DNA of 58,986 nt, counting the filler. It is 5 parts of 5 records of this genome, joined end to end, with 100 filler letters (N's around TTAATTAATTAA, not from the genome) between each part and the next. Parts side by side here need not be neighbours in the genome. Positions count along the whole stretch, not along the records: positions 1 to 13,694 come from SRR31156797_18213; 4 more parts are not named here. One strand, 5' to 3'. Under the pieces are notes generated by a model. That model worked only from the letters and a program-made list of their open reading frames with translations. It made no database searches and had not been told where the DNA came from. Of the stretch, positions 1 to 58,986 are shown in pieces. Positions within the stretch are counted from its first letter, which is position 1, and every line of letters begins with the position of its first letter. A program made the translations under genes and the position numbers.

Positions 1-2
1 AG

Positions 3-3000
3 TTGAAAATGGAAACGGCCCTGGAGCGGGCGCTGCTTGTCAATACGGTACTGGGTTCGAACATCGGGTCCCGGGAAGAGCAGTTCGAGGAGGCGTCATC
101 GCGCTTTACCGATCTCGCCGTCGAAACCCAGGACGATGTGAGCGCCGTAGTCGCTTTCGTTCAAAACGCCCTGCGCTCGAGCACCGATGAACGGGGCCGG
201 TCCAGACTGCGGCAGGTTTTGCTCAAAATCCAGGACATCGGCCTTTTGCTGGGAAACCACATGGGGTTGGCGCAACGGACCTTTTTCCTGATCGAAGACG
301 GCGATCAGGGAGGGGCATCGGCCAATCTGCCAGAACTTGAAGACCAACGAATAGAACTGACGGAAAAGATCTCGAACCTGATTTTCGAGGTTGAGGACTT
401 CGCCCGCGATTCGGCACAATCGGTTCTGCAACAGCAGCAGGCCAATCTGTTGATCATGGTCGCCGTGTCGGGCATCGGATTGGTCGTCTGCGTCCTCTTG
501 GGCCTGATCGTCGGCCGCAGCATCGCCGGGCCGATCAGGTCGGTCACCGGCGCCCTCGGCGAACTCGTTCGCGGCAATACGGAAATGCCGCTCAATATCA
601 AACAGGACGGAAGCGAACTGGGGGCGATGGCGGTCGCCTTGCGTGCCTTCCGGGAAGAGATCGTCAACCGGCGCGAAACCGTCGTTGCCTTGGCCGAATC
701 GGAACGGCGCTTCCACGCCCTGGCTGCGCTGTCGCCGGTCGGCGTGTTCTCGACCGACGCCAGCGGCAACTGTCATTACGTCAACGAGATGGGCTGCCGG
801 ATCTCCGGTTTGAGCGCGACGGAAATGCTCGGCCGCGGTTGGACCCGGGCGCTGCATCCGGACGACCGGGAAATGGTTCTGGCGCGCTGGGCGAAGGCAG
901 CGGCCTCGGATGAACCGTTCCGCGCCGAATACCGCTTTCTGAAACCGGACGAATCGATCACATGGGTTATCGGGCAGGCATCGCAGCACAAGGATGTGAT
1001 GGGGAAATCGACCGGCTTCGTCGGCACCATCACCGACATTACCGAGCAGAAAAATGCCGAGGAAGACCTTATAGAATTCGCGCGATCGCGCACCGAACTG
1101 CACCAGATCACCGCCGATCTGGATCTGGCGTTCGAGGAAAAAATCCAGCGCCTGCTCGCCCTCGGATCGAAAACCTTTCACCTGCCGCTGGGCATCGTCA
1201 GCCATATCGAGGACGACACCTACACGGTCGAACATGCGCTCGGCCCCGAAAACGGCACACCGCCGTCCGGGACCACCTTCGCCCTGGGCGAGACCTTTTG
1301 TGTCCATGCGTTCGATGCGAATGGACCGGTCGGCTTCAATAGGGTCGGACAAAGCAACATCCGCACCCACCCCTGTTACAAGAAGTTCGGCATCGAATCC
1401 TATATTGCCTGCCCGGTGGTGGTTGACGGGGAACGGTATGGAACCCTCAATTTCTCGGGCACCGAACCGCGCCCAAAACCCTTTGCCGACGGCGACTATT
1501 CGCTGGTGCAGCTGTTTTCCCAATGGATCGGAACCGAAATTTCCCGCCAGCGCGCGGAAGAAGTCCTCCGGGTCAGCGAAGAGCGCCTGAAACTGGCGCT
1601 GGAAGGCACCGACGACGGATTGTGGGACTGGAACGTCGACACCGGACATTCCTATTTTAGCCCGCGCTGGGAGGAAATGCTGGGATTCGAACCCGGCGAA
1701 ATGGAACAGCGTGTATCGGCCTGGGAAACGCGCATCCATCCCGACGACCATGCATCCATGCGAAGGGCGCTGGACGACCATCTGCAGGGAATCACCGCCA
1801 TCTACGAATCGGAGCATCGGCTGAAAGCCAGGAACGGCGACTGGATCTGGGTGCTGGACCGCGGCAAGGTGGTCGATCGCAGCCCGGACGGGCGGCCGAT
1901 GCGTGCCGTCGGCGCCCATGCCGACATCACGGCGCGCAAACGCGCCGAGGATGCGCTTCGCGAGAGCGAGGCGCGGGTCCGCACCCTGGTCGAAAACATC
2001 ATCGACGGCATCATCACCATCGATTCGGCCGGCATCATCGAATCGGTCAATCCGGCGGTCGAACGCATCTTCGGCTATGACAGTTCCGAAATGCTCGGAA
2101 AAAACGTCAAGATGCTGATGCCGCAACCGCATCGCGACGCCCATGACGAATACCTGAACCGGTACCGCGAAACCGGAAACGCCCGGATCATCGGCTCCGG
2201 CCGCGAGGTCGAGGGACGGCGCAAGAACGGCACCATTTTTCCGATCGATCTTGCCATCAGCGAAATGATGATCGGGGAGCGGCGGGGTTACACCGGTATT
2301 CTGCGCGACATTACGGAACGCCGCCAGGTCGAGCGCATGAAGAACGAGTTCGTGTCCAGCGTCAGCCACGAACTGCGCACGCCGCTGACCTCGATCCGCG
2401 GCGCCCTCGGCCTGATCGTCGGCGGCGCCGTCGGCGATCTCAGCGACAAGGTTCGGGATCTGGTCGATATCGCCTTCAACAACAGCCAGCGCCTGATCAA
2501 CATCGTCAACGACATCCTGGACCTGGAAAAAATCGGCTCCGGGCAGCTCAAGTTCCGCTTCAGAAGAACCGACATGGTGGCAATGGCCCGCAACGCGATC
2601 GCCGAGAACCAGGGCTTCGCGACCGAATACGGCGTTCATTTTGAATTGGCTGAGGAGACCGAATCGGCCCTCGTGCAGGCCGACAGCGACCGCATCAGCC
2701 AGGTCATGGCCAATCTTCTTTCGAATGCCGCCAAATTCTCGCCGGACGGCGAAACGGTCGATATCGTGGTGGAAACCAACGACGGCTGGGTTCGCGTTTC
2801 GGTTCGCGACCGCGGCCCCGGTATCCCCGAAGAATTCCGCGGCCGGCTGTTCGAAAGATTCAGCCAGGCGGATTCATCGGATACCCGCAAGGCCGGCGGT
2901 ACCGGGCTGGGCTTGAGCATCGTCAAGGCGATCGTCGACCATCATGGCGGTCACGTCGGGTTCGACTCGAAAATGGGTGTCGGCAGCGTCTTTTATTTCG

Positions 3001-3830
3001 AGCTTCCGGCGATCAGACCGGACGAAGTGGACAGACCGCCCAAGACCGCGGAAACCCACGGCTCGAACGGACACGTCCTGGTTTGCGAAGACGATGCCGA
3101 TATCGCCAAGCTGTTGGCGGTTCTTTTGCGCCAGGCCGGCATCTCGTCCGATATCGCCCCCGATGGCAAAACCGCAAGATCGCTTCTGGCCGAGCGCCAC
3201 TACGATGCGGCGACGATCGATTTGGTCCTGCCGGAAGAAGACGGCATTTCGCTGATCCGCGCCATTCGACAGAACGAGCGCACCCGGGATTTGCCCGTCG
3301 TTGTCGTTTCCGCCCGGGCCGAGGAAGCCCGCGAGGGCATCGAGGCATCGACGCTTGATATCGTCGACTGGCTGAACAAGCCGATCGACGAGCAACGGCT
3401 GCTTCGGGCCATCGACCTGGCCAGGAACGGCGGTACGAATCGCAAACCCCGGCTGCTTTATGTCGAAGACGATCCCGACCTGGTCGAAGTCGTGACCGCC
3501 GTGGTCTCCGGTTCGGCCGATACCACCATCGCGGCCAGCCTGGCCGAAGCCCGCAAGACGCTGAAACGCGAAACCTTCGACTTGATTATTCTCGATGTCG
3601 GGCTGCCGGACGGATCCGGGCTGGATCTATTGCCGGCACTGGAAAAAAACGATGGCGCGCCAACACCGATAGTTGTTTTTTCCGGCGAAGAAATCGAAGA
3701 AGATATGGTTCAACGGGTCGATGCTGCCCTGGTCAAGGCGAAGACGTCCAATAAGGCGTTGCTGAAAACCATCCAGGAGCTGATCGGTTCGAACGCAATG
3801 CGCAAGGGCAAAGGAGAAAATTCGGCATGA
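3..3830 (+). CDS. Hybrid sensor histidine kinase (TM-HAMP-PAS-GAF-PAS-PAS-HisKA-HATPase-REC-REC), 5'-truncated
   Basis: H-box FVSSVSHELRTPLTSIRG, N-box NLLSNAAKFS, G-boxes DRGPGIP and GGTGLGLSIVK. Two receivers (VCEDD..IDLVLP, YVEDD..LDVGLP). TM segment followed by HAMP. ORF is open at the window edge. Confidence 0.95.
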   Translation: MKMETALERALLVNTVLGSNIGSREEQFEEASSRFTDLAVETQDDVSAVVAFVQNALRSSTDERGRSRLRQVLLKIQDIGLLLGNHMGLAQRTFFLIEDGDQGGASANLPELEDQRIELTEKISNLIFEVEDFARDSAQSVLQQQQANLLIMVAVSGIGLVVCVLLGLIVGRSIAGPIRSVTGALGELVRGNTEMPLNIKQDGSELGAMAVALRAFREEIVNRRETVVALAESERRFHALAALSPVGVFSTDASGNCHYVNEMGCRISGLSATEMLGRGWTRALHPDDREMVLARWAKAAASDEPFRAEYRFLKPDESITWVIGQASQHKDVMGKSTGFVGTITDITEQKNAEEDLIEFARSRTELHQITADLDLAFEEKIQRLLALGSKTFHLPLGIVSHIEDDTYTVEHALGPENGTPPSGTTFALGETFCVHAFDANGPVGFNRVGQSNIRTHPCYKKFGIESYIACPVVVDGERYGTLNFSGTEPRPKPFADGDYSLVQLFSQWIGTEISRQRAEEVLRVSEERLKLALEGTDDGLWDWNVDTGHSYFSPRWEEMLGFEPGEMEQRVSAWETRIHPDDHASMRRALDDHLQGITAIYESEHRLKARNGDWIWVLDRGKVVDRSPDGRPMRAVGAHADITARKRAEDALRESEARVRTLVENIIDGIITIDSAGIIESVNPAVERIFGYDSSEMLGKNVKMLMPQPHRDAHDEYLNRYRETGNARIIGSGREVEGRRKNGTIFPIDLAISEMMIGERRGYTGILRDITERRQVERMKNEFVSSVSHELRTPLTSIRGALGLIVGGAVGDLSDKVRDLVDIAFNNSQRLINIVNDILDLEKIGSGQLKFRFRRTDMVAMARNAIAENQGFATEYGVHFELAEETESALVQADSDRISQVMANLLSNAAKFSPDGETVDIVVETNDGWVRVSVRDRGPGIPEEFRGRLFERFSQADSSDTRKAGGTGLGLSIVKAIVDHHGGHVGFDSKMGVGSVFYFELPAIRPDEVDRPPKTAETHGSNGHVLVCEDDADIAKLLAVLLRQAGISSDIAPDGKTARSLLAERHYDAATIDLVLPEEDGISLIRAIRQNERTRDLPVVVVSARAEEAREGIEASTLDIVDWLNKPIDEQRLLRAIDLARNGGTNRKPRLLYVEDDPDLVEVVTAVVSGSADTTIAASLAEARKTLKRETFDLIILDVGLPDGSGLDLLPALEKNDGAPTPIVVFSGEEIEEDMVQRVDAALVKAKTSNKALLKTIQELIGSNAMRKGKGENSA

Positions 3831-4219
3831 CGGCAAAAAAGCTGGCTCGGATCATGATGGTGGAAGACGACCCCGACATTCAGACCATCGGCAAAATGGC
3901 GCTGGAAACGGTCGGCGGATTTACCGTCGAGGTCTGCGATTCGGGTCGGGACGCCCTTGAGAAAGCGCCGGTGTTCAAACCCGATCTGGTTCTGCTCGAC
4001 GTCATGATGCCGGAAATGGACGGCCCGACCACGTTCAAGGGATTGCGGCAGTTGCCGGAATTCGTCGATACACCGATCGTCTTCTGCACGGCCAAGGCGA
4101 TGCCGTCGGAACTCGATCAATTCCGGGCGATGGGATCGGCGGGCATCATTCCGAAACCGTTCGATCCGATGAGTCTGGCCGCCCAGGTCCTGGAAATCTG
4201 GGAAAAAATCCATGGCTGA
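3827..4219 (+). CDS. Single-domain CheY-like response regulator
   Basis: MMVEDD..LLDVMMPEMDG..CTA..KPF; start overlaps the kinase stop (ATGA). Confidence 0.93.
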   Translation: MTAKKLARIMMVEDDPDIQTIGKMALETVGGFTVEVCDSGRDALEKAPVFKPDLVLLDVMMPEMDGPTTFKGLRQLPEFVDTPIVFCTAKAMPSELDQFRAMGSAGIIPKPFDPMSLAAQVLEIWEKIHG

Positions 4220-6059
4220 TACGGAGGCTGTCCTCGAGGAACGCCTGGCGGCGCTGCGTCTCGGTTTTGTCGAAAACCTGGAGGCTCGATTTACGGCGCT
4301 GGAAAAGGCCGCCAAGGCGATTGCCGCGGCGAGCGACAGTCAGGCGAGCGAAGCGGCGTTGCGGAAACTGCGCACCCAGTCCCACCAGTTGGTTGGATCG
4401 GGCGCCACCTTCGGCTTTCCCGAGATCAGCCGGATATCGAAGGACCTGGAACGGTTTTGCGATGCCCTTATCGCCGCCGACGCCGTACCGGACGCGACCA
4501 GCCAAAAGCGGATTGCCGACATGTTGCAGGCATTGCGCCGGGCCAAGGAAACGTCGGCGGAAGCGGCCGAGGTCAAAGCCGTCGATCTGGACGCCGAACA
4601 GGAGACCGATGAAAAAGAAGCCGCACCATGGCGCGTCCTTCTGGTCGAGGACGACAACGCCCAGGCCCGCGCCGTCATCGAATCCCTGAAAAGCGGACGC
4701 TACGACATCGAACATGTCGATACCGGGAACGCCGCCCTGGCCTCGATCGACAGCGCCGTTCCCGATGCCATACTGCTCGACATGATGCTGCCGGATATCG
4801 AGGGCATCGAAATTCTGCGCCGGGTCGCCGATCAGAAACTGCCCTGCACGGTCATCGTCGTCACCGCCCACGGGTCGGTCAATCTGGCGGTCGAGGCGAT
4901 GCGCCTGGGCGCCTACGACTTCATCATCAAGCCGTTCAACGCAACCCGCCTTCAGGTGACCCTGCATAACGCGCTGGAACACGACCGCCTCAGCCGCATC
5001 GTCGAAACCTATCAGGATCTGGACCGGTCGACCTATTTCGGGTTCGTCGGCAGTTCCCTGCCGATGCAGGCCGTCTATCGCATCATCGACAGCGCCGCCG
5101 GCAGCAAGGCGACCGTCTTCGTATCCGGGGAAAGCGGCACCGGCAAGGAGGTCTGCGCCGAGGCCATTCACCAGAAAAGCCCGCGCAACGGCAAGCCCTT
5201 CATCGCCCTCAATTGCGGCGCCATCCCGAAGGACCTGATGGAGAGCGAGATATTCGGCCACGTCAAGGGGGCCTTCACCGGCGCCGTTTCGGAGCGCGAA
5301 GGCGCGGCGCGGCAGGCCCACGGCGGCACGCTTTTTCTCGACGAGGTCTGCGAGCTCGACCTGACCCTTCAGACCAAGCTGTTGCGGTTCGTGCAGACCG
5401 GGACCTTTCAGAAGGTCGGCGGCGAGCGCCTGGAAGAGGTCGACGTCAGGTTTGTCTGTGCGACCAACCGCGATCCGATCGCCGAGGTCGCAGCCGGCCG
5501 GTTCCGCGAAGACCTGTTTTACCGGCTTCATGTGATTCCGATCGTGTTGCCGCCGTTGCGCGAAAGAGGCGCCGATATCCTGACCATCGCTCAGCAGTTC
5601 CTGGCCGATTTTTCGCGCGAGGAGGGAAAGGTCTTCGAGGCCCTGTCGCCGGAAGCCGAAGCCATCTTCGCGGGTTATCCGTGGCCGGGAAACGTCCGCG
5701 AGATGCAAAACGTGATCCGTCATATCGTCGTCCTCAACGACGGCCCGGTGGTAACCGAAGCGATGATGCCGCCTCCTCTTGGCGACAGCCCCGGGATTCC
5801 GGCACCGGCGATCGCGTTGCCGTCGTCACCGCCTTTGCCGGAACCGATTTCCGGCACCGCCGCCGAAGCCGAAACGCCGGATCCGACCGACGCCATCGCC
5901 GCCGCCATCCGGCCGCTGGCGGATGTCGAGCGCGAGACGATCGAGACCGCGCTACGTCTGTGCGACGGCAACATTCCGAAAGCGGCGCATTTTCTCGGCG
6001 TCAGCGCCTCGACGATCTATCGGAAAAAACAGGGATGGGAAGAACAGGACGGCGTTTGA
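4212..6059 (+). CDS. LuxO-like sigma54-dependent activator with N-terminal Hpt domain (Hpt-REC-AAA+-HTH)
   Basis: Hpt motif SHQLVGSGATFG; REC LLVEDD..LLDMMLP; Walker A GESGTGKEVCAEAIH; GHVKGAFTGA; LQTKLLRFVQTGTFQKVG; HTH CDGNIPKAAHFLGVSASTIYRK. From recall, these segments closely match Vibrio LuxO. Confidence 0.92.
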   Translation: MADTEAVLEERLAALRLGFVENLEARFTALEKAAKAIAAASDSQASEAALRKLRTQSHQLVGSGATFGFPEISRISKDLERFCDALIAADAVPDATSQKRIADMLQALRRAKETSAEAAEVKAVDLDAEQETDEKEAAPWRVLLVEDDNAQARAVIESLKSGRYDIEHVDTGNAALASIDSAVPDAILLDMMLPDIEGIEILRRVADQKLPCTVIVVTAHGSVNLAVEAMRLGAYDFIIKPFNATRLQVTLHNALEHDRLSRIVETYQDLDRSTYFGFVGSSLPMQAVYRIIDSAAGSKATVFVSGESGTGKEVCAEAIHQKSPRNGKPFIALNCGAIPKDLMESEIFGHVKGAFTGAVSEREGAARQAHGGTLFLDEVCELDLTLQTKLLRFVQTGTFQKVGGERLEEVDVRFVCATNRDPIAEVAAGRFREDLFYRLHVIPIVLPPLRERGADILTIAQQFLADFSREEGKVFEALSPEAEAIFAGYPWPGNVREMQNVIRHIVVLNDGPVVTEAMMPPPLGDSPGIPAPAIALPSSPPLPEPISGTAAEAETPDPTDAIAAAIRPLADVERETIETALRLCDGNIPKAAHFLGVSASTIYRKKQGWEEQDGV

Positions 6060-6116
6060 CGGAAATCGCGGGCAATCCGGCGGGGCGCCGCCGTTTCGCG
6101 GCCATCGAATGCTCGC

Positions 6117-6286
6117 AAAAAAAAGTTGGGTCCGGAGTTCTGGGTAGTCTTTGGGGGGGGAGGAGCTCTCCGGACCCACGAGTTTTCAGGGGAAGTCGCG
6201 GTCATTTGTCGACCGCGGATTATTCCACCACCTCCATCAACGTCCGGCCGCTTTGGCCATCGGTTGGCAGGTTAACATCCGTCTGC
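6117..6286 (-). ncRNA. Candidate sigma54-dependent small RNA with C-rich anti-Shine-Dalgarno motifs
   Basis: Predicted start about 12 nt downstream of a -24/-12 promoter. Hairpin CGCGGTC/GACCGCG (6197-6217). Terminal 11-bp stem TGGGTCCGGAG/CTCCGGACCCA (6127-6178) with CUCCUCCCCCCCC in the loop, then 8 U. No convincing ORF. Confidence 0.65.
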
Positions 6287-6296
6287 TCGAATCCTC

Positions 6297-6313
6297 CGCA
6301 AGCCGCGTGCCAA
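6297..6313 (-). promoter_or_regulatory. sigma54 (-24/-12) promoter
   Basis: Minus strand reads TTGGCACGCGGCTTGCG: TGGCAC-N5-TTGC with exact GG-N10-GC spacing. Confidence 0.85.
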
Positions 6314-6393
6314 TTGGCGGCTTGAAGAAAAAACGCGGAAAACCGGGCGTTTTTCGAATCGACGGGCGAACCGTTTCCGACGCAATGCGGGAA

Positions 6394-6433
6394 GCATTTT
6401 GCAAAATGCAATTAATTGTTTTGCTTCCTGCGA
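6394..6433. promoter_or_regulatory. LuxO-type enhancer (upstream activator sequence)
   Basis: TTGCAAAATGCAA at 6399-6411 matches TTGCA-W3-TGCAA and overlaps the palindrome GCATTTTGCAAAATGC. A weaker TTGC-N4-TGC copy starts 22 bp away at 6421. About 90-100 bp upstream of the -24 element. Confidence 0.7.
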
Positions 6434-6560
6434 AATTGCACCGGGCGACGACGCACTCGAAAAAAGTGAAGCCAGCACCGAAAATGGGCCGAATAACGCA
6501 TGAATCCGCGTTTATTAGGGATTTCCCGTATATTTGGCGGGGCCCGAATATGTTTATTAT

Positions 6561-6715
6561 CCGCGTTACGGGAAACGCGGCTTTTAAAGGGCTACAAACC
6601 CAATAAAAAACAAATCGACCATCCAACCCCACCCCTCCGTGCAGGATGGCCTCCGTGTTTCCCCTTTTTTTTCTTTCGTACCCGGGTCGGGCAAGTGCCG
6701 TCCCGGATTTTTTTT
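6561..6715 (+). ncRNA. Second candidate C-rich small RNA (or structured leader) ending in an intrinsic terminator
   Basis: Hairpins at 6561-6580 and 6619-6649 (loop contains CCCCTCC), repeated CCTCCGTG, GC stem at 6682-6706 followed by 8 T. Confidence 0.45.
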
Positions 6716-6822
6716 GCCCGCGTCATCGGTGCCGCCGCGCGCCGGTTTCCCGGCCGACTGTCGGACGCCGCCGTTATTTGATAGAATAGTTCGACCCTTT
6801 ATGACGTCGTGGGAGAGGTCCG

Positions 6823-7671
6823 ATGAAGACGATACTCCTGCCGATGTTTGCAGACACCCCGTCCGATGCCGCCATCGCCGCCGCCCGCGCGGTCGCGTTT
6901 CGATTCGACAGCCATGTCGAAGGGCTTTTCGTTCGCGCCGGCCCGCTGATGGTTCCGCGCGGACCGGTTCCGGTACATTTCCTGGAGCAATACAGCGAAT
7001 ACTGGGATCAAAGCGCCGACGACGCGCGGACCCGTTTTGCCACAGCCATGAACGAATGCGGCATACCGTTCCGCGAGACCGCCGTCGAAACCGAGGGGCC
7101 GACCGCCTGGTGGTGTGAAATGGAAGGCGAGTGGCCGCAGATCGTCGGCAATTACGCCAGGCTGTTCGAACTGACCATTCTGGCTCGACCGTCTGGCAGC
7201 GCCGAGGACGACTGGGGCCCGGTTTCGGAAGCCGCCATTTTCGACAGCGGACGTCCGATCCTGATCGCCGGGGCCGGCCCCATCGACCGCCTTGGAGAAA
7301 CCATCGTCATCGCCTGGAACCGCAGCACCGAAACGGCCCGCACCATCGCCATGGCGATGCCGATGCTGATCGCGGCCCGAAAAGTGATCGTGCTTTCGGT
7401 CGAAGGCGCGACAGGCGGTTCGGTACCGGGACCGCGGGGCGAAATGCTGGCGACGTATCTTTCCCGTGCCGGTGTCATGGCGGAGGCGCAAACGGTCGAG
7501 GCGAACGGAAGATCTTCCGGCGAAACGGTTCTGGACGAGGCCGCGGCACTCGACGCCGATATGATCCTGAAAGGCGCCTACACCCACAACCGGTTGCGCC
7601 AGATGATTTTCGGCGGCACCACCCGCCACATCATCGGCCATTCGGCCCTGCCGGTTCTGATCGCCCACTAA
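6823..7671 (+). CDS. Universal stress protein (tandem UspA domains)
   Basis: MKTILLPM N-terminus; IVIAWNRSTETAR; ILKGAYTHNRLRQMIFGGTTRHII..LPVLIAH; SD GGAGAGG. Confidence 0.9.
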   Translation: MKTILLPMFADTPSDAAIAAARAVAFRFDSHVEGLFVRAGPLMVPRGPVPVHFLEQYSEYWDQSADDARTRFATAMNECGIPFRETAVETEGPTAWWCEMEGEWPQIVGNYARLFELTILARPSGSAEDDWGPVSEAAIFDSGRPILIAGAGPIDRLGETIVIAWNRSTETARTIAMAMPMLIAARKVIVLSVEGATGGSVPGPRGEMLATYLSRAGVMAEAQTVEANGRSSGETVLDEAAALDADMILKGAYTHNRLRQMIFGGTTRHIIGHSALPVLIAH

Positions 7672-7850
7672 GCCGGCCGAACCGGTCCGCGTTCGACCCG
7701 GGGCCGGCCAAAAAAACACCGTTTTCGGTTGTGCCGAAACCCGTCAACAGGCAAAAGAGAGCAGTTTTGTTTCGCGCCGACCGACCGGGATGATCCGGCA
7801 CGGCCGGTCGCGCCTGATCCATCTCAACACCCAGACTCCCAGGAGGCACC

Positions 7851-8576
7851 GTGACAGCAAATACGATCGCCCGTTCGGCTCTCGTAACCGGCGGAACCCG
7901 TGGAATCGGCCGCGCCATCGCAGAAAAACTGCGCGACGAAGGTTGCGCCGTCACCGTCACCGGAACCCGTCCCGACGGGACGGCTCCAGACGGCTGCGAC
8001 TATCTGGCAATCGATTTTTCCGACCGCGACGCCTCGATCGAGTTCGCCGACCATGTCTCGGAAAGGGCCTTCGACATCCTCATCAACAACGCCGGCACCA
8101 ACCGCGTCGGCCCCATCGACGAATACGAACTGGAAGACTTCGAACTGGTCCTGCGGGTCAACCTGATGGCGCCCTTCATGATGTGCCGCGCCGTCATCCC
8201 GGGCATGAAACGCCGGCAGTGGGGGCGGATCGTCAACATCTCGTCGCTTTGGGGTATTGTCGCCAAGGAAAACCGCGCCGCCTACGGTGCCAGTAAATTC
8301 GGAATCGACGGCATGACCGCCTCGGTCGCGGCCGATGTCGCCGAATACGGCATCCTCGCCAACTGCATCGCGCCGGGATTCATCAAGACCGATCTTTCGA
8401 CCCGCCTTCTGAGCGAGGAAGGGCTGGCCAAACTGGCCGCCCAGGTGCCGCTCCGACGGTGCGGAACGGTCGACGAAGTGGCCAAGCTGGTGGCCTTCCT
8501 GGCCGGACCGGAAAACAGCTATATCACCGGCCAGAACATCGTCATCGACGGCGGGTTCATCCGCAGCCGCGGTTAG
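7851..8576 (+). CDS. Short-chain dehydrogenase/reductase (FabG-like)
   Basis: TGGTRGIG, NNAG, YGASK, PGFIKT, YITGQNIVIDGG; SD AGGAGG. Confidence 0.92.
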   Translation: MTANTIARSALVTGGTRGIGRAIAEKLRDEGCAVTVTGTRPDGTAPDGCDYLAIDFSDRDASIEFADHVSERAFDILINNAGTNRVGPIDEYELEDFELVLRVNLMAPFMMCRAVIPGMKRRQWGRIVNISSLWGIVAKENRAAYGASKFGIDGMTASVAADVAEYGILANCIAPGFIKTDLSTRLLSEEGLAKLAAQVPLRRCGTVDEVAKLVAFLAGPENSYITGQNIVIDGGFIRSRG

Positions 8577-8599
8577 GACGGCAATCGCGAGCGAGATCG

Positions 8600-8944
8600 C
8601 TATCGCCGGAACTGAGTGGAAAGCAGGTGCTTGTCCTCTTCGAGTTCGAACATGATGCGGACCCGTTTGGTAACGAGGTCCGCCTCGACTTCGTCGAGGA
8701 CGATGTGCCAGTCGCCCTGGCAGTACTGGTCTAGCCAATCCTCGATGACGTCGACCGGCCGCGCCGTCGTCAACATCACGCCGTACAGCAGGCGCCGCCG
8801 TTCCGATTGGCGCCGGTCTTCTTTTCCCCGGCGCTCCTCGATCCCGCCGCCGTCGTCGCCTTGCCGCCGTTCGTCCCCGATCCGGCGTTCCTTCTTCTTA
8901 CGCCGGTTGCGCAGCAGGCGGCCGATACCCTTGTCTCCGAACAT
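8600..8944 (-). CDS. Hypothetical protein with [DE]RR repeats
   Basis: 114-aa ORF filling the gap between two real genes; ERR/DRR repeats followed by a small acidic domain. Confidence 0.6.
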   Translation of the reverse strand: MFGDKGIGRLLRNRRKKKERRIGDERRQGDDGGGIEERRGKEDRRQSERRRLLYGVMLTTARPVDVIEDWLDQYCQGDWHIVLDEVEADLVTKRVRIMFELEEDKHLLSTQFRR

Positions 8945-9139
8945 TGTCGCTTCCGTCGGTGTGCTTGCAGATCCGATATTATCGCCCGACTGGAATTCGG
9001 CGGCAATGATTTCAACTGCTAAGACGGAATTGGGGCGAACAACAGCCGGTCGCTTTCCTTTTCTTCAAACCGCCAAATCGGCCTATATTCGACTCCGGCC
9101 GCCGCCGACCGGCAATCACAACGTTCGAAATATTGCCCG

Positions 9140-11515
9140 ATGACCGATCAGCCGACCCCCGCCGAAGTTTTCCAGGCCGCCCTGGGACGCCACCAGGCCG
9201 GCGATCTCGAAGGAGCGGTCGTTCTCTACAAGGCGCTGTTGCAGGCCAGCCCGAGAAACCCGCAGGTCTATCACATGCTTGGGCTGGTTTCGTATCAACT
9301 GCAGGACTACGACAATGCCGCCGATCTGATCGGGTTTGCCGTCGAAATCGATCCGGACAACGCCAGCTTCCTGCACAATCTCGGCCTCGCCCATCAGGCC
9401 GCCGGCCGGCTGGAGGAGGCCGAGGCCGCCATCCGCCGCGCCGCCGAGTTGAACCCGGAACGCGACGACGTTTGGAGCAATCTGGGCGCCATCCTGGAAA
9501 AGCGGGGCAATCTGGAAGCCGCCGAGAAGGCGCTTCGGACGGTCATCGAACGGTCACCCGAAGATCCGGTCGCCTTGAACAACCTGGCCGGCGTGCTCAG
9601 GGCCCGCGGCCGTCTCGAAGACGCCGAGACCGTACTCAGCCTGGCGGCCGAAAACCCGGCCTCCCACGCCGAGGTATTCGCCAATCTCGGCAACGTGCTG
9701 GGCGATTTGGGGCGCGACGCCGAAGCCGAAAAGGCGTATCGGCGGGCCGTCGAGGCATCGCCGGATTTCTGGGAGCCGTGGTGCAATCTGGCGGCCCTGC
9801 TGTTGCGCCAGGATAGGCTTGAGGAAGCCGAAATTGCGATACGGCGCGCCATCGATCCGGATATCGGCCGCTGGCAGGTATACCTCAATCTCGGACTGAT
9901 TCTGCAGGCGAAGGCGAACTACAAGGAAGCCGAGCGGGCGTTCCGCCAAGCGGTGCGCCTGAACGAAGACGATGGCGAACTGAAGATCAGGCTCGCCGAT
10001 TGCCTGCGCGCCGGCGGCGAAATCCGCAAGGCAGAAGCCATCCTGTTGAAGCTCGCCGGCGACGATCCGAACAACGCGGCGATCCACAACGGCCTGGCCG
10101 AGGTTTACCGTTTCAAGGGCCGGGTCGATCTGGCGATGGAAGCTTGGCGGCGTGCCGTCGAGCTGAACCCCGATCTGGCCGAGGCGCAATTCGGGCTGGG
10201 ATCCCTTCTGGCGGCCATCGGCGATGCCGGCGGCGCGGTTGCGCACCTTCGCCGGGCCGCGGATCTGTCACCGGGTTCGGCGCGCATCCACAGCAACCTG
10301 CTGATGGCGATGCAATATGACGCCTCCCTGAGCCGAAGCGAAATCGCCGCCGAACACAGGCGCTGGGGCGAACGCCACGGCCCGGCCGCCGAAAACAAAC
10401 CGCCGGCGCGGCCACGAACGGTCAACCGACGCCTGCGGATCGGTTTCGTCTCGGCCAGCTTCCACTTCCATGCCGCCGCCTTTTTCGTTCTGCCCCTGCT
10501 GCAACTGCGCGACCGCGAAAGCTGGGAAGCGGTGTTGTTTTCGGGCGTTACGGATCCCGATAAAACGACCGAGGCCTTCCGGCGCAGCGCCGACCGCTGG
10601 ATCGAGATCGGCACCCTCAACGACGACGCCTTCGCCAAACGGGTCGTCGAGCAGGGCATCGACATCCTGTTCGACCTGAACGGCCATACCCGCGGCACCC
10701 GGCTGCCGGCCTTTGCCCGGCGTCTGGCGCCGGTTCAGGCAACCTGGTCGGACTATGTCGATACGACGGGGCTGCCGACCATGGATTACATTGTCGTCGA
10801 TCCGATCCAGGTGACGGCCGACGACGAGGTCCACTATGTCGAGCGGGTGATTCGTTTGCCGCATGACTATATCTGCTATCGCCCGCCCGACTATGCGCCG
10901 CCGGTCGTCCCCCCGCCGTCGGCGGAAACCGGCGTCATGACTTTCGGATGCTTCAACACGGTCAGAAAACTGAGCGTCGAATCGATCGCCTTGTGGGCGC
11001 GGGTCCTGACGGCATGCCCGACGGCGCGTTTGTTGCTGAGTTCGCCCGAATTCCGTTGGCCGTCGGTGAAGGAACGCTACGAAACCCTGTTCGCCGATCG
11101 CGGAATTGCCGCGACGCGCCTCGAATTCGGCACCGGCGGCGATCATCAGGCTTTCCTGAAGGGTTACGCCGACATCGATGTGGCGCTCGATCCGACCCCT
11201 TATTCGGGCGGTCTCAATACCTGCGAAGCCCTATGGATGGGGGTGCCCGTGGTGACGCTCTACGGCGACCGGTTTTGCGGCCGCCATGCCGCCGTCCATC
11301 TGACCGCAGCCGGATTACCCGAACTGATTGCCGAGAACGCAGAAGAATTTGTCGAAATCGCCGTCGGGCTTGCCGCCGATCCGGCCCGCTTGGCGGAACT
11401 CAGAGAAGGCCTGCGGAGCCGCCTGACGGCATCTCCGCTGACCGACACGAAGTCTTTCGCGGGCGATTTCACGGACCTGCTGCGCCATATGTGGCGACAA
11501 GCCGGAACCGCCTGA
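9140..11515 (+). CDS. TPR-containing GT41 (SPINDLY/OGT-like) glycosyltransferase
   Basis: Many TPRs, then RLRIGFVS, DILFDLNGHT, RRLAPVQ, DVALDPTPYSGGLNTCEALWMGVPVVTL. Confidence 0.9.
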   Translation: MTDQPTPAEVFQAALGRHQAGDLEGAVVLYKALLQASPRNPQVYHMLGLVSYQLQDYDNAADLIGFAVEIDPDNASFLHNLGLAHQAAGRLEEAEAAIRRAAELNPERDDVWSNLGAILEKRGNLEAAEKALRTVIERSPEDPVALNNLAGVLRARGRLEDAETVLSLAAENPASHAEVFANLGNVLGDLGRDAEAEKAYRRAVEASPDFWEPWCNLAALLLRQDRLEEAEIAIRRAIDPDIGRWQVYLNLGLILQAKANYKEAERAFRQAVRLNEDDGELKIRLADCLRAGGEIRKAEAILLKLAGDDPNNAAIHNGLAEVYRFKGRVDLAMEAWRRAVELNPDLAEAQFGLGSLLAAIGDAGGAVAHLRRAADLSPGSARIHSNLLMAMQYDASLSRSEIAAEHRRWGERHGPAAENKPPARPRTVNRRLRIGFVSASFHFHAAAFFVLPLLQLRDRESWEAVLFSGVTDPDKTTEAFRRSADRWIEIGTLNDDAFAKRVVEQGIDILFDLNGHTRGTRLPAFARRLAPVQATWSDYVDTTGLPTMDYIVVDPIQVTADDEVHYVERVIRLPHDYICYRPPDYAPPVVPPPSAETGVMTFGCFNTVRKLSVESIALWARVLTACPTARLLLSSPEFRWPSVKERYETLFADRGIAATRLEFGTGGDHQAFLKGYADIDVALDPTPYSGGLNTCEALWMGVPVVTLYGDRFCGRHAAVHLTAAGLPELIAENAEEFVEIAVGLAADPARLAELREGLRSRLTASPLTDTKSFAGDFTDLLRHMWRQAGTA

Positions 11516-11538
11516 ATCAACCCTCCACCGTGTTCACT

Positions 11539-11730
11539 TCAGGCGCAGCGGTGGCTGCGCGTTTTTTCCGCGCTCTCTTTGGCGTCGGCAAGATCTTTCA
11601 GCGACCGCGCGATCTCGATGCAGCCCAGCTTTTCGTAATAGCGGGCCTTTTCGCGCAGATGACTAACCTCCGTCAAAATGGGAGCGGCGGGCTTTTTGCT
11701 TTGCGAATTGCGATAATCTGCCACGTACAT
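11539..11730 (-). CDS. Small hypothetical protein (63 aa) downstream of a sigma54 promoter
   Basis: MYVADYRN...RSHRCA with AAGAGG upstream of the ATG; alternative near-leaderless ATG at 11760. Confidence 0.5.
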   Translation of the reverse strand: MYVADYRNSQSKKPAAPILTEVSHLREKARYYEKLGCIEIARSLKDLADAKESAEKTRSHRCA

Positions 11731-11771
11731 TCCCAGCCTCTTTGAGTTAAGACTTTTCATGGCGATATCGC

Positions 11772-11788
11772 CGCAAAGCCCGTGCCAA
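11772..11788 (-). promoter_or_regulatory. sigma54 (-24/-12) promoter
   Basis: Minus strand TTGGCACGGGCTTTGCG with exact GG-N10-GC spacing, in intergenic DNA. Confidence 0.8.
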
Positions 11789-11856
11789 TTCGGGAATGGC
11801 ATATTCGGACCGCGATCCGCGGCCGATGACCGGAGCTTGCAGGCAGGAAGGCGGGG

Positions 11857-12708
11857 TTATGCCTTTTTCACGAAGTCTGTAAAGGCGTCGGCATAGTCGG
11901 GGTGCCAGCGCGACAACGGCGGGCGGTTTTCGACGATATCGCCGATCGCCCAAAGCATGCGCTTTTCATCGAGCTCGCGCGGCACGTCGTTATCCGGGCA
12001 CAGGATGTAGAAATCGCCGGCTTCGATGCTTTTCATCATGAAATCGACGGTCTGCTCGGCGGTCCAGGCGCCGGCCGGCTTTTCCGGGCGGCCGTGGGCG
12101 GTCAGCTCGGTGTAGACGAAACCGGGAATCAGCAGGCGGGCGTCGATCCGCGCGCCTTCCGTGTTGCGCAGTTGGTGCTGCAGCGCCTCGGTGAACGCCT
12201 TCACACCGGCCTTGGAAACATTGTAGGCGGGATTGCCCGGCGGCGTCGTGATCCCCTGCTTGGAGCCGGTGTTGATGACAAGGCCGGGCCGGCCCCGTTC
12301 GATCATGCCGGGCAGGAAGACCTGGGTGCCGTGAATGACCCCCCACAGATTGACATCCATGACGCGCTGCCAGGTCTTCGGTGATCCAATGATGTCGTTA
12401 CCTGGCTGGATGCCGGCGTTGTTCATCAGCACGTCGGTGCCGCCGAAGCGATCCCCGACCTGCGCTTCCAGGCGTTCGAGATCGGCGCGGGAAGCGACAT
12501 CGGTCTCGACGGCGAGCACGGCATCCGTTCCCCTGTCTGCCGCCGCGGCGATCCGTTCGGCCGCCTTGGCCAGCCTCTCGGCGCCCAGATCGGCGATGCA
12601 GACGTTCATTCCCAGGCCGGCGCAACGGATCGCCGAAGCGAGGCCAATGCCGGAGGCGCCGCCGGTGATGACGGCGGTCGAACCGGAAACCAGGGCGGGG
12701 TGGATCAT
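11857..12708 (-). CDS. Short-chain dehydrogenase/reductase
   Basis: TGGASGIG, MNNAG, YNVSK catalytic motif; SD AAGGAG. Confidence 0.92.
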   Translation of the reverse strand: MIHPALVSGSTAVITGGASGIGLASAIRCAGLGMNVCIADLGAERLAKAAERIAAAADRGTDAVLAVETDVASRADLERLEAQVGDRFGGTDVLMNNAGIQPGNDIIGSPKTWQRVMDVNLWGVIHGTQVFLPGMIERGRPGLVINTGSKQGITTPPGNPAYNVSKAGVKAFTEALQHQLRNTEGARIDARLLIPGFVYTELTAHGRPEKPAGAWTAEQTVDFMMKSIEAGDFYILCPDNDVPRELDEKRMLWAIGDIVENRPPLSRWHPDYADAFTDFVKKA

Positions 12709-13064
12709 GGCGGCGTCTCCTTGCGTTTTGCTTTGCTGTCGTCGAATTCGGGCGGCAGCGGCGTTGGCATACCGGCAAAGTTTATACCTGTCGCCGCGGC
12801 CGTCGTCAGCTTTCGCAACCTGTCACTATATTTTAACGGGGATCGTTCCCGCCGAAGGATTAATTATGGTCGGCCATTGGGAATGGCTGTCAGGGTGCGA
12901 AGCGGTTTTGGGCTTCACGGCGACGCCTTTCGGGTGTTGAATAAAGGGGTCCGGATCTCGCCCGTCCGGGCTCGACGCCCCCCATGCAACGAAACTCACG
13001 CAGCACCGGCTCCGCCTGCGGTATCGGTGGTGTTTTTCTATTGAGCGTTCGGAGGAGGGATATC

Positions 13065-13694
<630 letters not shown>

Positions 13695-54011: not shown

Positions 54012-54195
54012 AATATTTTAATAAAATTAGTTGTCATATCGATTTTCAGAAATATCATTAATACTACTGTGAGAATTAATTATACCTAAAATAATCAATA
54101 TGTGTTGTTGTTTAAAAACCATCATTTAAATAATGGCGTTCACTATACGGGAAAGCAATGTTAGGTTATCTAATTGCAGAAAAGCAATATAGTTT

Positions 54196-54246
54196 ACCAT
54201 TTAGCATTTTTTTCTGTGGTTGCAAGCAGCCAAATCTTTCCACTTA
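54196..54246 (-). ncRNA. SAM-II (long-loop, Bacteroidota-type) riboswitch
   Basis: Minus strand GTGG-AAA-GATTTG-GCT-GCTTGCA-A-CCAC-AGAAAAAAAT-GCTAAAT: P1 GTGG/CCAC and pseudoknot ATTTG/TAAAT, upstream of metK. Confidence 0.8.
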
Positions 54247-54370
54247 TTTCGTCGCAAAGGAAAGTATTATTTCGGAAAGAAACAAAAATGCAAGAGCTGT
54301 TTTAGGTGTTTTTAACAATTCGCACTCCTGAAAAACAGGTAGTTTGACCTCTATTAAGACATGTAAGTCT

Positions 54371-58940: not shown

Positions 58941-58986
58941 GGGCCTATAGCTCAGCTGGTTAGAGCACCTGACTCATAATCAGGGG
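58941..58986 (+). tRNA. tRNA with CAU anticodon (probably Ile2), truncated by the window end
   Basis: GGGCCTATAGCTCAGCTGGTTAGAGCA; anticodon arm CCTGA-CTCATAA-TCAGG. Acceptor 5' strand looks Ile2-like rather than initiator-like. Confidence 0.85.

Follow-up and report, generated by a model that had tools for sequence, protein, structure and literature searches.

We describe a locus from an uncultured marine alphaproteobacterium that is likely to constitute a four-step phosphorelay with a small non-coding RNA as its transcriptional output. The locus lies in a stretch of 58,986 nt (hereafter the window) and comprises three overlapping genes, for a hybrid histidine kinase, a stand-alone receiver and a LuxO-like sigma-54 activator with a fused Hpt domain, together with a convergent unit in which a LuxO-type enhancer box and a sigma-54 promoter precede a candidate RNA, sRNA1. 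The domain architecture, the family placement of the activator, the conservation of motifs and RNA, and the phyletic coupling of sRNA1 to the fused activator were all computed in silico. The window consists of five record parts joined by fillers of 100 Ns; the parts need not be neighbours in the genome, positions count along the whole window, and positions 1–13,694 derive from SRR31156797_18213. The window organism was represented by the window DNA itself; genome-wide searches were run on relatives reached via one homologous locus (L001), and covered the related family through seven species representatives and the order through 151 genomes or, for a second RNA (sRNA2), 401.

The kinase–receiver–activator operon

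Three plus-strand open reading frames (ORFs), at 3–3830, 3827–4219 and 4212–6059, overlap by 4 and 8 nt; together with the Pfam matches they bear out a preliminary description of these genes as a hybrid kinase, a single receiver and an Hpt-REC-AAA+-HTH activator. The kinase, truncated at its 5′ end by the window edge, carries HAMP, PAS, GAF, PAS, PAS, HisKA, HATPase_c, REC and REC domains, with the acceptor aspartate context present in both receivers. Because the frame is open from base 1, and because a homologue (L166, 55% identical) occupies an ORF of up to 1735 aa, we take the N-terminal sensor part to have been cut off by the window. Against the NCBIfam LuxQ model the kinase scores 173.8 bits (cut-off 1200) and has the catalytic core alone in common; nothing therefore indicates autoinducer sensing, and as its PAS and GAF domains are cytoplasmic we do not take the system to imply quorum sensing and avoid the label here. 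The stand-alone receiver (130 aa; Pfam Response_reg, E 1.9e-23) has the canonical DD...D...T...K pattern, and homologues that are 65–67% identical occupy the equivalent operon position in L166 and L167.

The third gene encodes a protein of 615 aa, which Pfam, NCBIfam, PDB, tree and alignment identify as a LuxO-like sigma-54 activator with an N-terminal Hpt fusion. Its Pfam domains are Hpt (19–110), REC (142–249), Sigma54_activat (279–444, E 1.2e-65), AAA_lid and HTH_8 (569–605); landmarks are the Hpt histidine His58 (codon 4383–4385), the receiver aspartate Asp190 (codon 4779–4781) and the GAFTGA motif, besides HTH_8 itself.

Predicted enhancer and promoter

On the minus strand, convergent to the operon, pattern scans recovered both the enhancer box and the sigma-54 promoter that had been proposed. 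The box, at 6399–6411, is a perfect match to TTGCA-W3-TGCAA (TTGCAAAATGCAA; TTGCATTTTGCAA when read 6411–6399 on the minus strand), centred 95 nt upstream of the G of the −24 element. By pattern comparison, two degenerate box-like sites with two mismatches each (TCGCAGGAAGCAA and TCGCCCGGTGCAA) lie at 6421–6448 (minus) and may represent a second enhancer site. The −24/−12 promoter, TGGCAC-N5-TTGC (TGGCACGCGGCTTGC), occupies 6298–6312 (minus) and is kept in all six homologous loci.

We compared the frequency of these motifs to shuffled sequence. The box alone, with at most one mismatch, was matched twice against 2.63 expected, and the −24/−12 element was found twice against 0.29 expected, a count reached by 5 of 100 shuffles. 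The composite of box, 60–90 nt and promoter occurs once where 0.00 are expected, and none of 100 shuffles contained any. When a relaxed version of the composite was sought in 220 loci, the only matches were the sRNA1 places of G001, G042, G065 and L091, and the qrr1 promoter of a Vibrionaceae locus (L214); the latter is the promoter of an Rfam-called Qrr beside canonical luxO. The accessible text of PMC10162802 gives the published UAS_LuxO as TTGCAWWWTGCAA, present in two copies upstream of qrr1. We predict that the activator targets this kind of site: a TTGCAWWWTGCAA-type sequence is present and conserved, and the recognition helix is one that the activator has in common with canonical LuxO. 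Among the seven related genomes rpoN is present in all and hfq in six.

A predicted structured RNA with its own terminator

Downstream of the promoter lies sRNA1 (6117–6287, minus), for which the predicted 5′ end gives a length of ~171 nt. A covariance model built for it matches 6115–6292 at 95.5 bits. The element includes a G-tract (6235–6225), a C-rich loop (6165–6153) and a run of eight U residues (6124–6117). In the terminator stem GGGTCCGGAG (6177–6168) pairs with CTCCGGACCC (6137–6128) around a loop of 30 nt, and the U8 run follows; a simple terminator scan missed this hairpin because the scan allows loops of 3–8 nt. The folding energy is −61.7 kcal/mol, compared to −52.1 ± 4.2 for shuffled sequences (z −2.29; 6 of 200 shuffles as good). 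The consensus structure has 41 pairs in five helices, with 85.9% of cells paired. Compensatory changes affect nine of the 41 pairs, a figure reached by one of 500 shuffles and by none of the slid controls, which were all lower; the sample is five related sequences, so that the statistics are weak and possibly inflated by relatedness.

No ORF, start codon or frame is conserved among the six sRNA1 homologues, and any frame that they might share is interrupted by the differing terminator loops (21, 24, 25 and 30 nt long). Rfam gave no match at E ≤ 10 within 5900–6900, Qrr (RF00378) included; as a control, the same search found Qrr at three of three canonical luxO loci and at none of ten others, five of which came from the window family. 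The region is thus, as first described, a structured stretch of about 170 nt that ends in a terminator and holds no convincing ORF, and the view that its RNA is not a Qrr likewise holds.

In contigs of four sequencing runs we found near-identical or fragmentary pieces only, and no new full-length homologue; one piece of 39 nt over 6156–6194, with five differences, occurs in runs X3 and X4. A separate observation concerns locus L211 (G001:C38), where the stop of a gene is directly followed, at ~1545–1600 (plus), by a hairpin whose loop is rich in C (…CCUCGUCCUCCCCCACACC…) and by a U-run. Weakly matched by the 3′ half of the sRNA1 model (E 0.009), this element may be a terminator only or a second RNA of similar seed.

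Family placement of the activator

The activator scores 625.1 bits against the NCBIfam LuxO model, 390.5 against NtrC and 307.4 against FlbD; the LuxO equivalog model (NF041946) is matched over positions 2–462 of 463. It has the LuxO-type REC – sigma-54 AAA+ – HTH_8 architecture, with GESGTGKE and GAFTGA invariant in the homologue alignment, and its best PDB match is LuxO (5ep0; 488 bits over REC and AAA+, compared to 323 for NtrC1). On the NCBIfam scale canonical Vibrionaceae LuxO proteins reach 822–841 bits and the second Vibrionaceae paralogues 646–659 (three genomes). Six of the seven family representatives have one LuxO-like gene at 618–642 bits; their next paralogues, which NCBIfam assigns to NtrC and NtrX, attain at most 341.

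A tree of 61 rows, made by a quick method with SH-aLRT support only and without an FlbD row, separates 48 LuxO-type rows from 13 NtrC/NtrX rows with a support of 100; the tree tool warned that long branches meet where the outgroup splits off. Within the LuxO type a clade of 45 rows (support 94) unites the window protein with those of other Alphaproteobacteria and of Aeromonas and with the second Vibrionaceae copies, and is sister to the three canonical Vibrionaceae LuxO rows. The C-terminal recognition helix (…GNIPKAAHFLGVSASTIYRKKQ… in the window) is nearly identical to that of canonical LuxO (…GNIPQAAGLLEVSPSTIYRKLQ…) and unlike those of NtrC and NtrX from the same genomes; the motif GNIPxAAxxLxVSxSTIYRK is common to the activator and canonical LuxO, and is found in neither NtrC nor NtrX. 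LuxO's DNA-binding domain is covered in the accessible text of PMC11407668. From profile scores, structure match, tree and recognition helix we conclude that the activator is a LuxO-family protein in a wide sense and is not the Vibrio LuxO equivalog. The proposed affiliation therefore stands, in that LuxO is favoured over NtrC and FlbD by profile score and over NtrC and NtrX on the tree, with the qualification that the protein is sister to canonical LuxO and not within it.

Three Vibrionaceae, Enterovibrio, Grimontia and Parasalinivibrio, possess two LuxO-type genes each (L218, L219, L220 versus L213, L214, L215). In these genomes canonical LuxO has a Qrr alongside; the second copy, at 646–659 bits, falls with the LuxO-like clade of Alphaproteobacteria and lacks a neighbouring Qrr.

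The Hpt fusion

The Hpt domain (PF01627) of the activator scores 33.3 bits against a cut-off of 24.6, and the invariant H58-x-L-x-G-S-G fits the HxxxG histidine. His58 and the receiver Asp190 are invariant in all 22 fused sequences of the alignment. Of 8000 database proteins scored, the best 120 include 21 clusters in which an Hpt precedes the LuxO-like part; the closest protein relatives of the activator (P0001 and P0002) are 84% and 77% identical. The eight fused rows of the tree form a single clade (support 99).

With the full-length protein as query, 51 of the 151 order genomes gave a LuxO-like match at E ≤ 1e-140. In only four of these (G001, G042, G065 and G111) does the match begin at residues 1–3; in the other 47 it begins at residues 127–142. 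A metagenome scan with the Hpt alignment found the fused activator in only three of 80 kept loci. The Hpt domain alone proved unspecific as a probe for the fusion, matching 55 of 151 genomes, mostly in frames unrelated to this activator. Gammaproteobacterial Hpt–LuxO fusions, suggested by matches starting near residue 53, are not claimed, since tblastn with the window Hpt found L001 only among 88 loci. A literature search with partial journal coverage, supplements excluded, returned no Hpt-fused LuxO and no LuxO-dependent sRNA outside Vibrionaceae.

In one sub-branch of the fused activators (L081, L082 and L174 of G111) a convergent gene stands directly 3′ of the activator gene in place of the sRNA locus; it was taken as aldolase-like from its reading frame only.

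Conservation of the sRNA1 unit and coupling to the fused activator

Homology of the intergenic sequence was first seen in only L001 and L091 among 160 loci. Genome searches of relatives added G042 and G065, and G111 was picked up at full length by the covariance model (E 2e-9); together with the window this makes six sRNA1 loci (L001 belonging to genome G001). Each has TGGCAY-N5-TTGC and a box with at most one mismatch, centred 81–114 nt upstream of the −24 G; in G001, G042 and G065 there are two boxes, 19–20 nt apart. The expectation that box, −24/−12 element and RNA would be conserved together is thus borne out in every homologous locus.

The RNA lies next to luxO in the window and in four of the six loci overall, but is unlinked in two, being 5.3 kb away in G065 and on a separate contig in G111. 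From these two unlinked units it follows that the promoter architecture is independent of adjacency to luxO. In all contexts convergent genes or a terminator follow sRNA1. A gene for a tandem universal-stress-protein-family protein (usp; Pfam Usp, 282 aa), at 6823–7671 (plus) in the window, adjoins the sRNA locus in the window, L001, L091, L166, L167 and L209, that is, in all six sRNA1 loci, including G111, where unit and usp gene share a contig other than that of the fused activator. The conserved block is usp – (sRNA2) – sRNA1, with the kinase–receiver–activator operon alongside in four of six loci.

Across the 151 order genomes sRNA1 occurs in four, and these are exactly the four with an Hpt-fused activator; it is found in none of the 47 genomes with an unfused LuxO-like gene and in none of the 100 without such a gene. 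One copy was found per genome. In a further 83 source loci no sRNA1 was found; these comprise 81 luxO loci (L002–L082, of which L081 and L082 are Hpt-fused) and the family loci L178 and L179.

A second candidate RNA

Divergent from sRNA1 is a second candidate RNA that the preliminary description had not recorded. This element, sRNA2 (6566–6722, plus), is indicated by the alignment of relatives, by its fold and by a terminator of its own. A closing helix of 14 pairs joins 6570–6580 to ~6653–6663 and encloses an inner hairpin; the loop CCCCACCCCUCC is at 6627–6638, the terminator hairpin at 6682–6706 and the U-run at 6708–6715. A core of 45 nt (6619–6663) is identical in six copies (the window, L001, L091, G042, G065 and G098), each with its own plus-strand terminator; the activators of these carriers are only ~61–65% identical to that of the window over their full length (G098 has none). 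There is no Rfam match. Four of the seven family genomes carry sRNA2, a fifth family member (G111) gives a weak match of 31 nt, and the 401 order genomes gave no clear match beyond the family. In G098 it is present without LuxO and without sRNA1.

Upstream, an alignment island at 6515–6562 (plus) forms a putative promoter region for sRNA2. The near-palindrome TTAGGGAWTTCCCG (6515–6528), which in relatives reads TTAGGGAATTCCCGAA, is followed at fixed spacing by sigma-70-like −35 and −10 elements; in G098 this was judged by eye.

In a seawater metagenome (run X2) the summed contig depth over the sRNA2 core (6626–6679) is ~104, compared to ~6–9 on its flanks, which suggests that several organisms in the sample have the core in common.

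Proposed mechanism and alternative explanations

From the above we infer the direction of phosphate flow, the activation of sRNA1 by this activator, and the 5′ end, mode of action and targets of the RNA. The hybrid kinase would autophosphorylate the histidine of HisKA and hand the phosphoryl group to one of its two receivers; the group would then pass to His58 of the activator-fused Hpt, in the role of the separate LuxU of Vibrio, and next to Asp190 of the activator receiver, giving a His-Asp-His-Asp relay. The stand-alone receiver is probably a competing phosphate sink or modulator. Once phosphorylated, the activator would bind the box or boxes ~85–130 nt upstream, and its AAA+ domain, through the GAFTGA loop, would open the sigma-54 promoter at 6298–6312 to produce sRNA1. 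The RNA would act in trans, probably with Hfq: by base pairing, exposed segments rich in C (CUCCUCCCCCCCC of the large terminator loop, for example) would occupy the purine-rich ribosome-binding sites of target mRNAs and so prevent translation. Family placement, co-conservation and the Rfam results support the circuit logic as originally proposed, which is of Lux type but with a different input, a fused Hpt and a non-Qrr RNA; neither of the computable results that would have spoken against it, an AAA+ domain outside the LuxO clade or a loss of the motifs beside homologues, was obtained.

A number of points weigh against such a phosphorelay. Concerning the RNA, its promoter, its 5′ end and its very existence are predictions from sequence; the single-sequence folding z-score (−2.29) is modest, and the covariation sample is small, as noted above. 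No target stood out when sRNA1 was folded against the initiation regions of neighbouring genes and 54 background ORF starts, a comparison in which GC-rich sequence yields large non-specific energies. Concerning the activator, it falls short of the LuxO equivalog cut-off (625 against 800 bits), it sits in the sister clade and outside the canonical Vibrionaceae clade of the 61-row tree, and a DNA specificity identical to that of LuxO is presumed from its helix-turn-helix. The box alone occurs at chance frequency, and the window has a single perfect one. Adjacency is no rule, since L081, L082 and G111 have the fused gene without the sRNA within its flanks; and because all carriers belong to one lineage, the four-out-of-four coupling may count as one evolutionary event and not as a repeated association.

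Three other explanations bear on the same data. It might be supposed that sRNA1 depends on sigma-54 but is driven by another enhancer-binding protein (NtrC, NtrX or a paralogue), its position by the LuxO-like operon being incidental. Related genomes each give 3–5 matches to the activator at E ≤ 1e-60, and so hold 2–4 further sigma-54 activator genes; sRNA1 is unlinked from luxO in two of six loci; and in V. fischeri, according to the accessible text of PMC10162802, a second activator, SypG, can use LuxO sites. Nevertheless, the upstream boxes fit the LuxO consensus, the recognition helix is that of canonical LuxO and not that of NtrC or NtrX from the same genomes, and sRNA1 is confined to genomes with the fused LuxO-like gene (4/4, versus 0/47 with unfused genes and 0/100 without), so we regard another activator as very unlikely. 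It is barely credible to us that there is no independent RNA gene at all, the hairpin being a bidirectional terminator of the activator operon or part of a small-protein ORF, and the promoter-like motif fortuitous. The hairpin does lie 58–118 nt past the stop of the convergent activator gene, which it could also terminate, and several open frames cross it in individual sequences; yet the whole unit (box, promoter, ~165–175 nt and hairpin) is kept even where no activator gene is adjacent, the differing loop lengths (21, 24, 25 and 30 nt) preclude a common frame, start codons are not conserved, and the shuffle expectation for the composite promoter is 0.00.

The remaining explanation concerns what sRNA1 does. 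The sRNA2 loop CCCCACCCCUCC is complementary to the sRNA1 G-tract (GGAGG-U-GGUGG in the window, GGAGGGGUGGGG in L091), and sRNA1 might work mainly through this pairing, so that the relay would switch off or titrate sRNA2 in the manner of an RNA sponge, or the reverse. The two RNAs are divergent neighbours in five of six sRNA1 loci. In the five genomes with both, the duplex of sRNA1 with a 19-nt sRNA2 loop has an energy of −22.4 to −34.1 kcal/mol, as good in only 0–9 of 300 sRNA1 shuffles, and the best duplex uses the same G-tract every time; the duplex of G111, a genome in which no sRNA2 was found, reaches only −20.1 and 23 of 300 shuffles are as good. However, the shuffles kept mononucleotide content only, tracts rich in G pair readily with tracts rich in C, and the consensus fold predicts the G-tract to be paired internally; the sRNA2 loop never varies, which precludes a test of co-variation; G098 retains sRNA2 without sRNA1 or LuxO; and the G111 genome is incomplete (2.5 Mb). 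The complementarity could reflect RNA–RNA antagonism, or could be a by-product of G/C-rich composition or intramolecular pairing. That sRNA1 works mainly through sRNA2 we consider rather doubtful, and we offer only tentatively a two-RNA switch, in which the LuxO-type relay would induce sRNA1 and its G-tract would neutralise a separately controlled sRNA2, in addition to any direct targeting of mRNAs.

Comparison with known systems

The textbook phosphorelay acting through small RNAs is that of LuxO and Qrr, and to our knowledge the Qrr family is confined to Vibrionaceae. The proposed phosphorelay resembles the LuxN/LuxQ/CqsS–LuxU–LuxO–Qrr circuit of Vibrio in the passage from hybrid kinase via Hpt to a LuxO-family REC-AAA+-HTH activator, in TTGCA-W3-TGCAA boxes ~100 nt upstream of a −24/−12 promoter, and in an output consisting of a small RNA that ends in a terminator and usually has its gene next to that of the activator. 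The differences are several. The activator carries a fused Hpt at its N-terminus, whereas LuxU of Vibrio is a separate protein encoded downstream; a stand-alone receiver is added; the sensor region of the kinase is based on PAS and GAF domains, and only the catalytic core is common to LuxQ; the activator is in the sister clade of canonical LuxO. The RNA is of ~171 nt, lacks a Qrr match and is convergent, downstream of the activator gene, whereas Qrr lies upstream of luxO in the three control loci. Finally, a single copy of sRNA1 was found per genome, compared to the up to five qrr genes of Vibrio given in the accessible text of PMC8043402.

Response regulators of the NtrC class that drive sigma-54-dependent sRNAs include GlrR (GlmY) in enterobacteria, and CbrB (CrcZ) and NtrC (NrsZ) in Pseudomonas; their activator families and enhancer sequences differ from those of the present locus, and we know of none among them that uses an activator-fused Hpt relay. 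sRNA1 is unrelated to GlmY, CrcZ and NrsZ, without an Rfam match at E ≤ 10. Alphaproteobacteria have sRNAs with C-rich (anti-Shine-Dalgarno) loops, for example CcsR/‘cuckoo’, NfeR1 and AbcR. Like these, sRNA1 has CCUCC-type hairpin loops that could pair with ribosome-binding sites; it differs from them in having no Rfam family match, a sigma-54 promoter and another genomic context.

Other LuxO-like loci and other features of the window

A crude sigma-54 scan of 84 luxO loci found, in 33, at least 10 of 12 positions matched within 1.3 kb. Those matches that have boxes mostly precede protein-coding genes, and neither sRNA1 nor sRNA2 occurs in any of those loci. In L019 (~2100, plus), L040 (~6791, plus) and L008 (~7714, plus), a consensus sigma-54 promoter with a LuxO-type box stands just downstream of luxO, before a protein-coding gene, which by its N-terminal sequence resembles a response regulator in L019 and L040. 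Given these protein-coding outputs, an RNA output appears to be unusual within the LuxO-like clade.

Within the window, a second TGGCAC-N5-TTGC element at 11773–11787 (minus) is without a LuxO-type box, and ~40 nt after it is a small ORF of ~63 aa (about 11540–11730, minus) with a plausible ribosome-binding site. Further features are a SAM-II riboswitch at 54191–54249 (minus; 61.8 bits) and, at 58941–58986 (plus), a tRNA of which only the 5′ part precedes the window end.

Significance

LuxO-like activators are common in marine Alphaproteobacteria, being present in 51 of 151 genomes of the order, and their outputs are undescribed in the searchable literature. Our data suggest that in one alphaproteobacterial lineage at least, enhancer, promoter type and kind of output are those of the Vibrio circuit, with an unrelated RNA and an Hpt-fused activator. 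The locus provides two new candidate sRNA families, and a natural LuxU–LuxO fusion for the study of phosphotransfer; because its enhancer box is the Vibrio box, reporter strains of Vibrio or E. coli allow a direct test of the promoter despite the host being uncultured. The locus also allows a tractable test of whether the passage from LuxO to sRNA is an ancestral or a convergent design. Were the two-RNA switch true, the LuxO-to-sRNA design would be older and wider than Vibrionaceae, with lineage-specific RNAs placed in the same enhancer and promoter setting.

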